64,000 nt of DNA, taken from the NCBI GenBank assembly GCA_964016885.1, contig OZ024758.1, forward strand, positions 21,762,001-21,826,000, in the 5' to 3' direction. Of the stretch, positions 2,110 through 46,477 are shown one piece after another. The position numbers and the translations under genes were made by a program. Origin of the DNA: Eledone cirrhosa. Taxonomy: Eukaryota. The stretch's first letter is position 1. Each line of letters begins with the position of its first letter. A model generated the notes under the pieces. It saw only the letters and a program-made list of their open reading frames with translations, searched no databases and was not told where the DNA came from.

Positions 2110-2531
2110 TAATATAAGATCAAAAAATGGTTAAAAGAGTTCCAAGTATTTTATTATGCGCATTTCAAAAACAAATATCATCATAAGATGATATCTGCGT
2201 TTTCATCAGATAAAATAGGGATACATGATATGAAGGTTAAAAAACACTTGTGAATAGTGAAGTTTTAAATCAACATATATATGTTGATTTAAATGTTGAT
2301 TTAAAACTTCACTATTCACAAGTGTTTTTTAACCTTCATATCATGTATCCCTATTTTATCTGATGAAAACGCAGATATCATCTCATGATGATATTTGTTT
2401 TTGAAATGCGCATAATAAAATACTTGGAACTCTTTTAACCATCTTTTGATCTTATATTATTTATACTCCAGTCCTACAAACTGTAGAGTGTTACTTATCC
2501 GATATTTGCATTGCTTTATTGTGCTACAATA
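2110..2531. mobile_element. HHR hairpin element, family A (Penelope-type pLTR remnant)
   Basis: Inverted arms ~2110-2276 and ~2293-2459; right arm extends ~70 nt further; flanked by (TA)n; second copy at 25650-26060. Confidence 0.8.
2352..2422 (+). ncRNA. Type I hammerhead ribozyme (family A); mirror copy on - strand at 2147-2217
   Basis: TATTTTAT-CTGATGA-[16-bp stem II AAACGCAGATATCATC/GATGATATTTGTTTTT]-GAAA-TGCGCA-TA-ATAAAATA; perfect 8-bp stem I; palindromic stem III ATGCGCAT. Confidence 0.88.
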
Positions 2532-2558
2532 TATAAATATATATATATATATATATAT

Positions 2559-2972
2559 GCAAAAGTTCTATTTAAAGTTGTTGGGATACAACAAGTAAAT
2601 ATTTTTACAACTGATATAAAGCACTCGACAAGTTTTTGGAGTAGATATACGATATTAATAAATGGAAACTATATTTATAAAACCATATTTATTTGATTAT
2701 ACATATTTCAGGGATTCCACAATAAATTATGGTATGCCTTCATCAGACAAAATACAATATATAACAGTTTTACAAATAGCTTTGACGTACCCTTTTAAAA
2801 TACAACCATTACTTTTGGAGGCTGTCTGGATAGTCAAAGCTATTTGTAAAACTGTTATATATTGTATTTTGTCTGATGAAGGCATACCATAATTTAATGT
2901 GGTATCCCTGAAATATGTATAATGAAATAAATATGGTTTTATAAATATAGTTTCCATTTATTAATATCGTAT
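2559..2972. mobile_element. HHR hairpin element, family B
   Basis: Arms ~2647-2786 and ~2833-2972; left arm extends ~90 nt further to 2559; (TA)n on both sides. Confidence 0.8.
2865..2929 (+). ncRNA. Type I hammerhead ribozyme (family B); mirror copy on - strand at 2690-2754
   Basis: TATTTTGT-CTGATGA-AGGCATACCA..TGGTATCCCT-GAAA-TATGTA-TA-ATGAAATA. Confidence 0.85.
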
Positions 2973-2993
2973 ATATATATATATATATATATA

Positions 2994-3375
2994 TTGGTGT
3001 GATCCTGTCTAATATATATATATATATATATATATATTGGTGTGATCCTGTCTAATATATATATATATATATATATATATTGGTGTGATCCTGTCTAATA
3101 TATATATATATATATATATATTGGTGTGATCCTGTCTAATATATATATATATATATATATATATTGGTGTGATCCTGTCTAATATATATATATATATATA
3201 TATTGGTGTGATCCTGTCTAATATATATATATATATATATATATTGGTGTGATCCTGTCTAATATATATATATATATATATATATATTGGTGTGATCCTG
3301 TCTAATATATATATATATATATATATTGGTGTGATCCTGTCTAATATATATATATATTGGTGTGATCCTGTCTAA
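2994..3375. repeat. 10 copies of TTGGTGTGATCCTGTCTAA separated by variable (TA)n
   Basis: Units start at 2994, 3037, 3080, 3121, 3164, 3203, 3244, 3287, 3326, 3357. Confidence 0.95.
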
Positions 3376-41855: not shown

Positions 41856-43203
41856 TCACGTAAAGAAATATTGACAGTATTTTTGTCCTGTATTATACTC
41901 TCGCCATACTTTTTCGTTCATTTTCTCAATATTATTAATATAAAATCTGCACTGCAACGCATTGTGGTTTATGAAGTGTTATCAACTTATTAAGGCTAAA
42001 AATTATTATTCTCTATGATGAAATAAACCTAATCATTTCTATATTGTTTTTCGGGAAAGGCCATTTGAAGTCACAAAGCAAATGGAAGGATTTGAGATTT
42101 TTAATCAGAGAGTTGTTTATGAGCAGTAGAACGGTCGTATAATTTTGATTTATGTGGGTGATAAATTTGTGTTTACGTTACCAGATAATCAGAACCAATT
42201 TTACGGTTGACTGCTGGTTCTTTTTAATGGTGGATGTGTAAGTTAGTCCAGTAATGTTAAGATTGTAAGTTAAACGTGGAGTAATGTAATCAGCGTTGGA
42301 GGTGGTCTCCATGATTGGAATATTAGAGAAGAAATATTCTGAGTGTCACAAGCGAATAAATTCTTGGAGATCAGAGTTAGTGCATTATTTATTTTTCTAT
42401 TTTCATGAAAAGCAATTGTGCATTCAATTGAAAATACGTAACCTAAATAATTAAGTTAGATGTAGTTAATATTTCTCAGCCTCAAGTTGTAAATTTTTAG
42501 TGTGAATTCAGTAGAACTCTTACTGATGTTAATACAGAAATTAGATTTTTATAAATTTCTTTAAAATACAGCAACTTTGGTGTAAGCTAGCAATAAATTT
42601 TGTTTCATAGGAACTAGTATTTCGGGTTGGAAAAAGATAGACATGAATTAAATATTCATCAAACCGTCATTATCAATAATCGTCTCTTAAAATTGAAGTA
42701 GATAAAATTGATCAGTAACTGTAAAGCTGACATATGTACGAAAGTATATAATTTCATGGAGCAATATTTAGTATGAATATCAAGTTAAGTGCAAAGTGTT
42801 TCCCGTTGATGCTTTTAAGAACACCCGATTTGTATGTACTAAATGACTGATAAAATTAGTGTGCTCAGTGTTTGTAGAGTATGAAAAAGCACAATTTATT
42901 GATATAACACCAAGTTAAAAGCTAAAATCGATGGACTTCAATAAGCGTTTTAATTCTTTAATTGTGTCTGTTCTTCCGCTTTAATGTTCTCACAACTATC
43001 TTTTACCTGAAACCAATAACTCATAAAACAGTCTTTGTTTTATGTTCTTCATATTTCGTTGTTGTTCCTATAGTTTTCGCTTTTTCTATTAGATATTTTC
43101 GTAAAATTACAGTATATATATATATATATATATATATATATATTCATTCCGCCCTGCCAGTCTCTCCTCAATCTTTCTATTTCTTCTTTAATTTCTCATT
43201 CTA

Positions 43204-43239
43204 TCTTCTGATGAAGGACTAGCGTCCGAAACGTTAAGA
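43204..43239 (+). ncRNA. Minimal type I HHR, family E
   Basis: TCTT-CTGATGA-A-GGAC-TAGC-GTCC-GAAA-CG-TT-AAGA; element 43145-43328 lies between (TA)n. Confidence 0.82.
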
Positions 43240-44340
43240 CTCTTTTCCTACTATATCAAGCATAAAACTAATATATTTCTTCATTGTACTGTGTCGTTTG
43301 CTTTGATATTTCTGTTTGCTTTTTGCATATATATATATATATATAATATATATATAATAATAATAATAATTGTTTCTATTTTAGGCACAAGGCCAGCAAT
43401 TACTTTATTTTATAGACTCTGTAAGGATGAAAGGAAAAGTTAACCTCGGCGGGATTTAAATTCAGATCATAAAGGGATATATATAATAATAATAATAATA
43501 ATAATAATAATAATTGTTTCTACTTTAGGCACAAGGCCAGCAATTATCCAGTGCATTACTGGTACTAATAATAATAATAATAAATATGAAGACTAAAATC
43601 CGAAGAGGGCTCGATAAGGATTATATATATAATAAGAACAAATTAAAGTTTAAGCAAAGAATCGCCGCTTATATATGTATATATAAGTTGTCGGGACTGC
43701 TCGTACCGGTTGCATTCCGAGTTCAAATCCCACTGAAGTTGACTTTGCTTTTCATCCTTCCGGGGCCAATAAAATAGAGTACCAGTTAAATACTGGGGTC
43801 TATTTAATTGTCTATGCTCTCCCACCCAAATTGTGAAGGCGCATGGCTTAGTGGTTAGAGCTTGCAATCGAAAGGTTGTGAGTTCAATTCTCGGACCGGG
43901 TGATGTGTTGTTTCCTTGAGCAAGACACTTTATTTCACATTGCTCCAGTTTACTCAGCTGTAGAAATGAGATGATAGGACTGGGGTCCCTATCATTAAAT
44001 TACCCAAGACACCTCCAGCGAGATATAGCTTGGAGGAGACCAGCTAAACCTGCAATGGTGGGAGCTGTCACACACCCAAATCTGTGACCTTTGTGTTTAA
44101 GTAAGCAATCACTATTAATGTAGTTGGTGTCGGGAATGTGAAATGAAGAGCTTCTCATATTTAGTTATTTCTTCTTATGTTCTGAGTTCAAATTAAACTG
44201 GGGTAAAATTCCACGCGCTTCTTTCAGGAAATTAAATAATATGCACTTGGTAAAATTTAATTAAGATACCCCCCCCCTCCCCTCCTTTTATAAATGTGTG
44301 ACGACTAGAAATTGTTCTTCCAACTTTAGAAATTGTCATT

Positions 44341-44778
44341 AGCAACAGTAGTAGCAGCAGTAGTAGTAGTAGTAGTAGCAGGAGTAGTAGTAGTAGCAGC
44401 AGCAGTAGTAGTAGTAGTAGCAGTAGTAGCAGTAGTAGCAGTAGTAGTAGTAGCAGCAGTAGTAGTAGCAGTAGTAGCAGTAGTAGTAGTAGTAGCAGCA
44501 ATAGCAGTAGTAGCAGTAGTAGTAGCAGCAGTAGTAGTAGTAGCAGCAGTAGTAGTAGTAGTAGCAGTAGTAGTAGCAGCAGTAGTAACAGTAGCAGTAG
44601 TAGTAGTAGTAGTAGCAGCAGTAGTAGTAGTAGCAGCAGTAGTAGTAGCAGCAGTAGTAGTAGTAGTAGCAGCATTAGCAGTAGTAGTAGTAGTAGTAGC
44701 AGCATTAGCAGTAGTAGTAGTAGTAGTAGCAGCATTAGCAGTAGTAGTAGTAGTAGTAGTAGTAGCAGCAACAATAGT
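44341..44778. repeat. (AGT/AGC)n microsatellite
   Basis: Direct inspection. Confidence 0.95.
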
Positions 44779-46477
44779 ATCATTATTCATTTTAATATTT
44801 TATAATCTTTGTTTAATTTTCTCTGCGTTGGGAAGTGTGATTGTGTGTGTTTGTGCGTGTGTGTGTCTGTGTCTGTCTGTGTGTATGTCTGCATCTGTGT
44901 GTCTCTATGTGTGTGTGTGTGCGTGTCTCCCTCTTACACACACACACATACACGCACATATCTATATATATATGTGTCTGTGTGCGTTTATATATATATA
45001 TATATATATATAGGAACGAGTAGAACCCCGACGGCTGAGCTCAAGCCGTTTCGACGGCTAATTCTGGACTTGAGCTCAGCCGTCGGAGTCCTACTCGTTC
45101 CTATTACCCACTCTACTACCCTAAATATTGAGTACTTTGGTGCGTTATGGTCCATCTGGTTCCTTACCACATTTCCTTCGTTATATATATATATATATAT
45201 ATATATATATATATATATATATAAGTTGAAATAAAATGAAAACGAAATTTCATTTCTCACTCTTAGTACGGCACTTACTTAAATGTAAGTATGTGTGTAT
45301 ACGTGCATACATATATGTATACAGACGTACAGTAGCATGCATATATATATATATATATATATATATATATATACATACAGGTACACATACATATATGCAC
45401 GTATCAGTTTAGCGGACGCTTATTATAACGCCGCTTTGTTCGTTTGTAAACAAACTGAACAGCCTGAATTTTTATGCCGTACGGTGTTAAGGCAACCACG
45501 TCACCTTATTTTATATATATATAAACGCACACAGATATTTTTTTTTTTCAATTGTTACCTTTCTTAAATCTCTCGCGAATATTTGGTAATTGGTTCTAGT
45601 GTCGAATCCATCAGAAAAATGATCTTAACACTTATCAATGTCAACGCTGTTTTCACATCCTTTTCAGGTAGTTATAATTTGTAATTGTTTTATCTTTCAG
45701 AATCACACTGCTGTCACCTGTGATGGCTCTATCTATAATCATTCCTGTTGTTTTCTTCTCCCATATAATCACATGGCTGTTAAAATGCCTACAAATTATT
45801 AACAGAGTTCCTCTTCCCAACGAGAACGCCTTCATAGTTACGTGTTGATCCTCTTTCTCCAGCTATTCAGATCTCCTCCGAGCTCATCTCTCAACAAAAT
45901 ATTCCGCTAACATAGTCAGGCCTAACTTGCTTTCTGTTTTACGTTCAGCTATATTCTCAAATTCAATTATGTCGTGAGCATTATTCTCCTCTTATTCTTT
46001 TCGCCACATAACTTAGACATTTTAGCGTGGAGATCTATAATATATATATATATATATATATATATATATATATAGAAACAATTATATATTATAGATATAT
46101 ATGTATATATACATAGATGTGTGTGTGTGTGTGTGTGTGTGTGTTGTTTTGTTTAAGTGGAAATTAATGTAATTTATTTGCAGGATTTGTTACGATGCTA
46201 CACAGATCACACATATATATATATATATATATATATGTGTGTGTGTATAGACATATATATATATATGTGTGTGTATATATATATATATATATATATGTAT
46301 GTGTGTGTATAGACATATATATATATATGTGTGTATATATATATATATATATATATATATATATATATATATATATATATGGGGTGTGTGTCTAGACATA
46401 TATATATATATCATAGATATATATATTATATATTATATATATATATATCATAGATTTATATATTATATATATATATA

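Follow-up and report, generated by a model that had tools for sequence, protein, structure and literature searches.

Penelope-like hairpins of the window

The stretch of DNA analysed here (the window) comprises 64,000 nucleotides of Eledone cirrhosa contig OZ024758.1 (positions 21,762,001 to 21,826,000; GenBank assembly GCA_964016885.1), and carries a series of short hairpin-like inserts in (TA)n runs, which are head-to-head insertions of Penelope-like retroelements (PLEs). Inverted arm pairs were found by comparing the window with itself, and their ends were then read base by base (Table 1). The original prediction, drawn from the sequence alone, had described asymmetric hairpins in which one arm stops at a family-specific position and the other continues. 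We found the hairpins at the places it named, and every two-armed insert among them has one arm with an early stop (short end) and one longer arm (long end), a combination referred to here as long+short; the additional sequence of the long arm is the tail. Short ends had been placed at 2110 and ~26058 in family A, at ~2970 and 37712 and in solo arms at 32311 and 32536 in family B, and at 37110 and 45011 in family D, all close to the ends in Table 1. The tail measures 87 nt in the full long arm of family A and ~88-90 nt in family B, for which ~90 nt had been given, and ~78 nt in family D, slightly under the 80-90 nt proposed. The same organization had been assigned to inserts at 8749-9197 and 28347-28530 and to an autonomous element. 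It is present in the hairpins at 8750-9196 (short end 9196, long end 8750, tail ~93 nt) and 28347-28530 (short end 28347, long end 28530, tail ~65 nt) and in the family C element at 18703-22949 (short end 22949, long end 18703, tail 40-41 nt), whose arms meet with a 2-nt overlap.

A run of (TA)5 or longer adjoins 18 of the 20 ends, versus 5% of background positions. The arms of a window hairpin differ by 1-10 bases per pair, and a repeat resembling a short interspersed element (SINE) interrupts the tail of only one arm of a family B hairpin, as a later insertion. Because the arms differ and one alone holds this repeat, the hairpins are not library fold-backs.

The coding capacity of families A-D identifies the elements. 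The family C element of the window contains Pfam RVT_1 and GIY-YIG domains, and another copy has an intact open reading frame (ORF) of ~860 aa; longer genomic copies of families A, B and D carry ORFs with reverse transcriptase (RT) and GIY-YIG-like motifs, as read by eye. The short hairpins are therefore the pseudo-LTR (pLTR; LTR, long terminal repeat) ends of autonomous elements. A tandem pLTR-ORF-pLTR arrangement occurs in three loci (L133, L179 and L249), inverted arms are found throughout, and the one-sided 3' tail of endonuclease-bearing (EN+) PLEs is present, with 40-41 nt in family C and 78-90 nt in families A, B and D. The A and D proteins have DKT (the B pieces begin downstream of this motif) and an RWK-like motif (RW-x), and those of A, B and D share a CxCx5C linker and a GIY-YIG core without CxxC (no CCHH); (TA)n targeting holds for all three. 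Families A, B and D thus carry protein motifs of the Hydra clade, to which these motifs would assign them. Canonical hammerhead ribozymes, a further mark of this clade, are present in families A and B and absent from family D, and the A and B units measure ~3.7-4.4 kb. Family C is another PLE with a C-terminal GIY-YIG domain; it has DKG, GPKF and CxxC..H..H, and its linker, C-C-x4-C-x7-C, is not the exact CX2-5CxxC of Nematis/Neptune. Two other identities were ruled out for families A-D: Naiad/Chlamys, as the endonuclease is C-terminal and not N-terminal to the RT, and non-LTR retrozymes, as the hairpins are ends of coding elements.

According to the original prediction, the hammerhead-sense strands point outward in two-armed inserts. 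This is so for all two-armed A and B copies. Twelve type I hammerhead motifs with a palindromic stem III, all in A and B copies, were found in the window using a strict descriptor, in a form relaxed from an initial, stricter version that gave 0 matches; the shuffled control gave 0.1 per window (30 shuffles). Family C has a variant core in both arms, and the CUGANGA core was not found in a core search of family D, 28347-28530 or 8750-9196. An Rfam scan of the window returned 306 matches, and among the 150 listed there was no hammerhead model, almost all being microRNA models under their gathering scores; there was likewise no hammerhead among the matches listed for seven loci. The hammerhead calls therefore rest on the descriptor and on folding, for which the z values against shuffles were -3.4 in family A, -2.1 in family B and -0.2 in family C. 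By these measures, the A and B motifs are putative canonical type I hammerheads and that of family C is a variant. Hammerhead-like motifs were also noted at 33211(+), 37547(+), 43208(+), 57992(+) and 59668(-). They lie in short (TA)n-flanked inserts besides those above (37345-37697 and 43144-43326) or in a complex hairpin of greater age (32700-33422), and are probably ends of other PLE families.

Table 1. Hairpins, solo arms and SINE-like repeats of the window
Positions	Strand	Feature	Short end	Long end	Hammerhead core
1799-2096		Family F hairpin; both arms long (exception), tRNA part outside this copy
2111-2531		Family A hairpin; short arm -, long arm + (tail ends ~16 nt before the family end); centre at 5' pile-up site	2111	2531	Type I, 2209(-), 2360(+)
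2559-2971		Family B hairpin; long arm -, short arm +	2971	2559	2746(-), 2873(+)
8750-9196		Hairpin; 93-nt extension on - arm			Only GAAA/palindromic stem III half visible
18703-20204	-	Family C long arm; tail 40-41 nt, 3' ORF half with GIY-YIG			Variant, 18894(-)
20204-22949	+	Family C short arm; 5'-truncated, frameshifted RT and GIY-YIG ORF, 3' untranslated region, pLTR			Variant, 22797(+)
25641-26060		Hairpin of a second family A subfamily; long arm - complete, short arm +	26060	25641	25829(-), 25959(+)
27254-27506	-	Family B solo arm		27254	27442
28347-28530		Small hairpin; short arm -, 65-nt extension on +			Not found
32302-32421	-	Family B solo arm	32302		32400
32539-32682	-	Family B solo arm	32539		32637
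37111-37304		Family D hairpin; short arm -, long arm +	37111	37304	Without core
37707-38270		Family B hairpin; short arm -, long arm + with tail split by SINE-like repeat 38020-38213	37707	38270	37805(-), 37880(+)
39630-39787	+	Family D-related solo arm, long end
40277-40528	-	Family B solo arm		40277	40464
45012-45181		Family D hairpin; short arm -, long arm +	45012	45181
538-708, 6481-6873, 9496-9686, 13452-13752, 38020-38213, 46478-46804, 53512-55263, 59941-60562, others		SINE-like repeat copies

PLE hairpins of different families directly adjoin one another across common (TA)n runs, both at window positions 1799-2971 and in loci L214, L217, L255, L258 and L270, the same microsatellite having been hit repeatedly. 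Long composite (TA)n-derived arrays lie beside PLE ends at 17277-18700, 22950-23533, 28560-31760 and 38271-39627; those flanking the family C element align as an inverted pair, and an assembly gap of 200 N follows from 23534.

Two fixed ends and their pairing in the genome

Scanning of the 3.0-Gb genome showed that the pattern extends beyond the window, the ends being family-specific in thousands of copies. Exact-pattern ends of family A followed by TA numbered 5,329 for the short end and 8,701 for the long end, as compared with 0 for the reversed-pattern controls. There were 44,753 core matches for family B and 23,468 tail matches for family D; the 8750-9196 family is represented by its window copy. 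The prediction that one arm starts from the 3' tail of the RNA was not supported, as 215 family A copies extend past the long end into the RT ORF, and the long end of family C lies ~10 codons inside the intact ORF, with the ATG inside the tail. Both presumed start sites, that of the long end (L) and that of the short end (S), are therefore internal to the RNA. The TA-like sequence noted at the short end was supported.

To describe the pairing, we took the first 100 long-end matches of family A on one contig (C1), which correspond to 97 inserts, together with 1.5-6 kb of adjoining sequence. A short end was the nearest inverted partner of the long end in 76 inserts, a long end in four and an end elsewhere in four, while 10 had no partner (one of them a spurious 27-nt match) and three were same-strand tandems. 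The ratio of short to long partners, 76:4, departs strongly from equal odds (p=3e-18 against 0.5). In a hand count of 27 short-anchored A inserts, a set that overlaps the long-anchored one, 18 were long+short, three short+short and six unresolved. The first 100 matches of family B contained 18 outward pairs, of which 15 were fetched; all 15 were long+short, as were all 20 family C inserts fetched from ~32 outward pairs, mostly the shortest; the B and C samples demand the core motif in both arms. Among the first 20 tail-bearing matches of family D, the partner was short in 12, long in one and other in one, with two solo arms and four unresolved. These pairing counts are among the additions of this analysis. 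Several short+short or long+long pairs (L050/L051, L056/L057 and L158) have identical outer flanks on both sides, and these are larger palindromes including host DNA, which arose once the elements had inserted or during assembly. Families A, B and D all show an ACTC/GAGT stem immediately 3' of S, recorded here only as a lead.

The window hairpin at 1799-2096 belongs to a further family, F, and fell outside the wording of the original prediction because it has no hammerhead; both of its ends are long. Family F has 1,901 genome matches, and the 14 outward pairs in the first 100 of these were all long+short, one being interrupted by other sequence, and all spanned <0.5 kb. The long end varies by no more than a few bases, and the short ends occupy TA-like positions spread over ~50 nt. 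This scatter suggests that the protein determines L and that S depends on pairing with the target. Longer copies (loci L278-L293) start with a tRNA-like head, which scored 38-45 bits with the Rfam tRNA model (gathering score 29) in all three loci reaching the head, and ARAGORN called a tRNA in two of four loci. A direct tandem has a period of 272 nt (L293). No hammerhead was found in family F, no similarity to the A-D loci held up, and no partner element was found; this family, tandem but without a hammerhead, is accordingly not assigned to the non-LTR retrozymes. Being short and apparently without coding capacity, family F is possibly a non-coding passenger of the PLE machinery.

Junctions, proposed two-ended priming and rival routes

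The junctions of family A lie between 27 nt and >3 kb from the ends, and the two complementary DNAs (cDNAs) meet at short palindromes, at microhomologies or with a few added bases. The arms overlap in 67 of the 76 long+short inserts, and in the remaining nine the long arm lies wholly inside the tail and has nothing in common with the short arm. Where an arm exceeds 300 nt (28 inserts), the short arm reaches further 5' in 23 inserts and is the longer cDNA in 21, with medians of 1,333 and 331 nt (p=0.013, uncorrected); the 48 short inserts showed no corresponding bias (18 vs 14). Many arms terminate at a single 5' site that lies 255 nt from the family A long end, with 23 of 76 short and 28 of 116 long arms ending within 3 nt of it (duplicate removal in these counts was imperfect), and 1,968 A hairpins are centred there. 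In a hand count of the first 50, the next base could be read unambiguously in 23 arms, and in 12 of these it was G in place of the genomic C (p=1e-4 at 17% G), or in 10 of 21 when each perfect palindrome is counted a single time; single-base spacers at this site were C or G in seven of seven cases, although these are ambiguous. An extra G opposite the cap is a known property of RT, and the 5' stop with the extra G is as expected for a capped RNA. The site resembles what we take to be an initiator motif. Similar pile-ups were seen by eye in families C and D. The long-arm 5' ends also cluster near S, which may reflect microhomology and was not used as evidence.

The hammerhead cut may be a source of some 5' ends. 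Short arms start exactly at the cut in three of 76 family A inserts; among the 50 centres listed, about six lie at the cut (hand count) and 10 on the stem III palindrome. No more than 164 A hairpins have their centre near the cut, usually on a palindrome or microhomology, as compared with the 1,968 at the upstream 5' site. The few centres at the cut agree with uncleaved RNA as the main template, as described for a green anole element (PMC11167929).

We propose, with a probability of roughly two in three, that these inserts arise by two-ended target-primed reverse transcription, that is, by priming from both DNA ends at two sites on the RNA of an endonuclease-bearing PLE. Transcription would start inside the pLTR and give an RNA that is presumably capped, and the RT-GIY-YIG protein would cut both strands of a (TA)n run, as the flanks and the in vitro activity of the anole PLE lead us to infer. 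One DNA end would prime at the fixed downstream site L and the other at the upstream, TA-like site S, both internal to the RNA, the tail being the RNA between them. Each cDNA would stop at a random point or on reaching the 5' end of the RNA, and the two would be joined by short palindromes, by microhomology or with a few bases added. Priming on the pLTR copy close to the 5' end of the RNA would give hairpins of ~420 bp, and priming on the downstream pLTR those of kilobase length. From the near-strict pairing of L with S it follows that the two priming events differ; two dimer subunits may, for example, act on one RNA, although more than one RNA may serve. The original prediction had both arms templated by element RNA, primed separately and joined at truncated 5' ends. 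The long+short coupling, the nine inserts with non-overlapping arms and the extra G speak for this outline, and the junctions were as described; random truncation does not describe the many arms that stop at one site.

In favour of the proposal, the median difference between the arms of one hairpin is 1 per 140 nt, versus 7.5 between hairpins, and no subfamily mixing was seen in 46 typed hairpins (0/46). However, only nine of 30 cases had the partner arm as the single closest sequence, with 17 ties and four in which others were nearer.

Several observations weigh against two-ended priming as set out above. The similarity of the arms may stem from gene conversion or from subfamilies active at different times, and the overlap of the arms in 67 of 76 inserts means that a single RNA template would require strand displacement. 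Long+long exceptions exist in family A (four), in family D (one) and in the window hairpin of family F, and short+short inserts make up three of the 27 short-anchored A inserts, two of which have identical outer flanks. Folding of the tails was no more stable than that of shuffled sequences, so that no conserved tail structure was found, and neither compensatory pairs nor covariation were found in the family A tails. In the anole element PAc, the same start sites are used on both strands, whereas the two ends here are almost never alike, and the PAc start site lacks homology to the target, whereas S here is TA-like (PMC11167929). An empty site, a target-site duplication and an RNA 5' end were not observed; contigs swamped by repeats never bridged the stretch in four runs, and any target-site duplication signal is masked by (TA)n.

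The exceptions and the nature of S give some ground to the main alternative, in which both ends prime at L, and the endonuclease or end joining then trims one tail at a TA-like site. Such EN-mediated resolution was proposed as the origin of the tail (PMC8557442), S sites are TA-like and resemble the target, the short end of family F is scattered over TA-like positions, and long+long inserts exist. We consider it unlikely, as trimming exactly one arm needs an asymmetry of its own, short+short inserts being rare, and as trimming leaves the longer short-arm cDNAs unexplained; moreover, RT starts at both borders of the tail in vitro (PMC11167929).

Fold-back is quite improbable: here only one cDNA would be primed, and its 3' end would loop onto its own strand and be extended as a DNA copy, to be joined at S to the (TA)n end on the far side. 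Many centres are indeed palindromic or have short templated duplications, and the arms are nearly identical, as such a copy would be. However, nine of 76 long arms share nothing with the short arm, and in 23 of the 28 long inserts the short arm extends beyond the long arm and so is not its copy. Since a copy of the long cDNA cannot outreach it, and the short-arm cDNA holds no tail, folding back is not the general route; it may account for the symmetric exceptions.

Copying of whole hairpins from a few master loci, or formation of the palindromes in DNA after insertion, is very unlikely. Many A hairpins have a common centre, and two short+short inserts and one long+long insert have common outer flanks, as this explanation would require, but the junctions vary over the whole range given above, the common centre has variable added bases, and the flanks differ in long+short inserts. 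Assembly or library artefacts can practically be dismissed even though palindromes beside low-complexity runs are hard to assemble, as the arms differ, one holds a later insertion, the ends are family-specific in thousands of copies, and the families also occur in contigs of two other organisms.

A stronger claim, which we put forward only tentatively and regard as rather doubtful, is that PLE integration is obligately asymmetric. One ribonucleoprotein would set L, S would be paired with the (TA)n end, and both would copy the same capped RNA; the same machinery would also move the 272-nt family F, ribozyme-free and with a tRNA promoter, as a SINE driven by a PLE and not by a long interspersed element (LINE).

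Relation to known systems and significance

An inverted, 5'-truncated copy with a tail of 30-40 bp at one end is a hallmark of PLEs (PMC8557442, PMC3846280), and the tail has been attributed to two internal RT start sites (PMC11167929). Since inverted arms, a tail on one side and two internal starts have all been published, the window presents a known PLE hallmark in new families, a tail and inverted pLTR pattern that the original prediction had not recognized. Both PMC8557442 and PMC11167929 treat the origin of the inverted and tandem structures and of the tail on one side as an unsettled question. The elements resemble EN+ PLEs in having an RT with a C-terminal GIY-YIG domain, in families A and B a pLTR with a type I hammerhead, partial tandems (PMC8557442, PMC3846280), and head-to-head arms with a tail on one arm. 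The family C tail overlaps the ORF start, as described for rotifer and anole elements (PMC3846280, PMC11167929). They differ from EN+ PLEs in the length of their tails, 78-93 nt in families A, B and D and at 8750-9196, and in that family D lacks a hammerhead core. The likeness to the Hydra clade (PMC8557442) comprises DKT, the CxCx5C linker, the absence of CCHH, the RWK-like motif, (TA)n insertion and, in A and B, the hammerheads; in contrast, A and B exceed the length of 'generally <3 kb' given for this clade, and hammerheads, called universal in it, are missing from family D.

The Poseidon element PAc of the green anole is a close counterpart studied in vitro (PMC11167929). Its protein cleaves AT-rich DNA on both strands and extends both, a dimer is predicted, and the main template is uncleaved RNA; as here, the tail is bounded by two internal RT start sites. 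The portions consulted do not deal with the junction or with the extra G at the 5' end.

In the twin priming of LINE-1, both target ends prime on the element RNA, the second through microhomology, and an inversion results; there, each arm represents a different part of the RNA, and the first priming event takes place at the poly(A) end. By contrast, both sites described here are internal and lie 40-90 nt apart, and most arms overlap.

Family F resembles non-LTR retrozymes (bioRxiv 10.64898/2026.07.22.740005) and tRNA-derived SINEs in being short, apparently non-coding and directly tandem, and may rely on PLE enzymes; unlike these retrozymes it has a tRNA-like head, no hammerhead and long+short hairpin insertion. 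The short A-D hairpins differ from tandem retrozymes in being ends of autonomous elements. Structures of this kind are not described in the consulted portions of reports on octopus repeats (PMC13282606), bivalve SINEs (PMC11481361) and a butterfly (preprint 10.1101/596502). In the literature searched, which took in few subscription papers and not Repbase, we came across no account of the pairing rule, of tails this long, of run-off with an extra G or of a tRNA-headed PLE passenger.

The window contains other repeats as well. The SINE-like repeat, of 120-190 nt, is very abundant and often forms head-to-tail arrays of 175-213 nt. An open frame of 879 aa at 46917-49556 (+) with RVT_1 and zf-RVT belongs to a LINE-type retrotransposon, and a 176-aa frame at 58704-59234 (-) resembles the end of another retrotransposon nuclease domain. 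Tandem arrays lie at 10427-12161 and 51592-53253, with periods of ~167 and ~122 bp.

As the genome holds tens of thousands of young copies, the question of PLE structure becomes one of counts, and any model must fit the long+short pairing, the non-overlapping arms, the longer short arms and the run-off, with its extra G, at a single 5' site. Although they could be mistaken for miniature inverted-repeat transposable elements or microRNA hairpins, the short palindromes flanked by (TA)n that are described here are PLE ends. If family F is indeed a PLE passenger, the known partners of SINEs would be widened.

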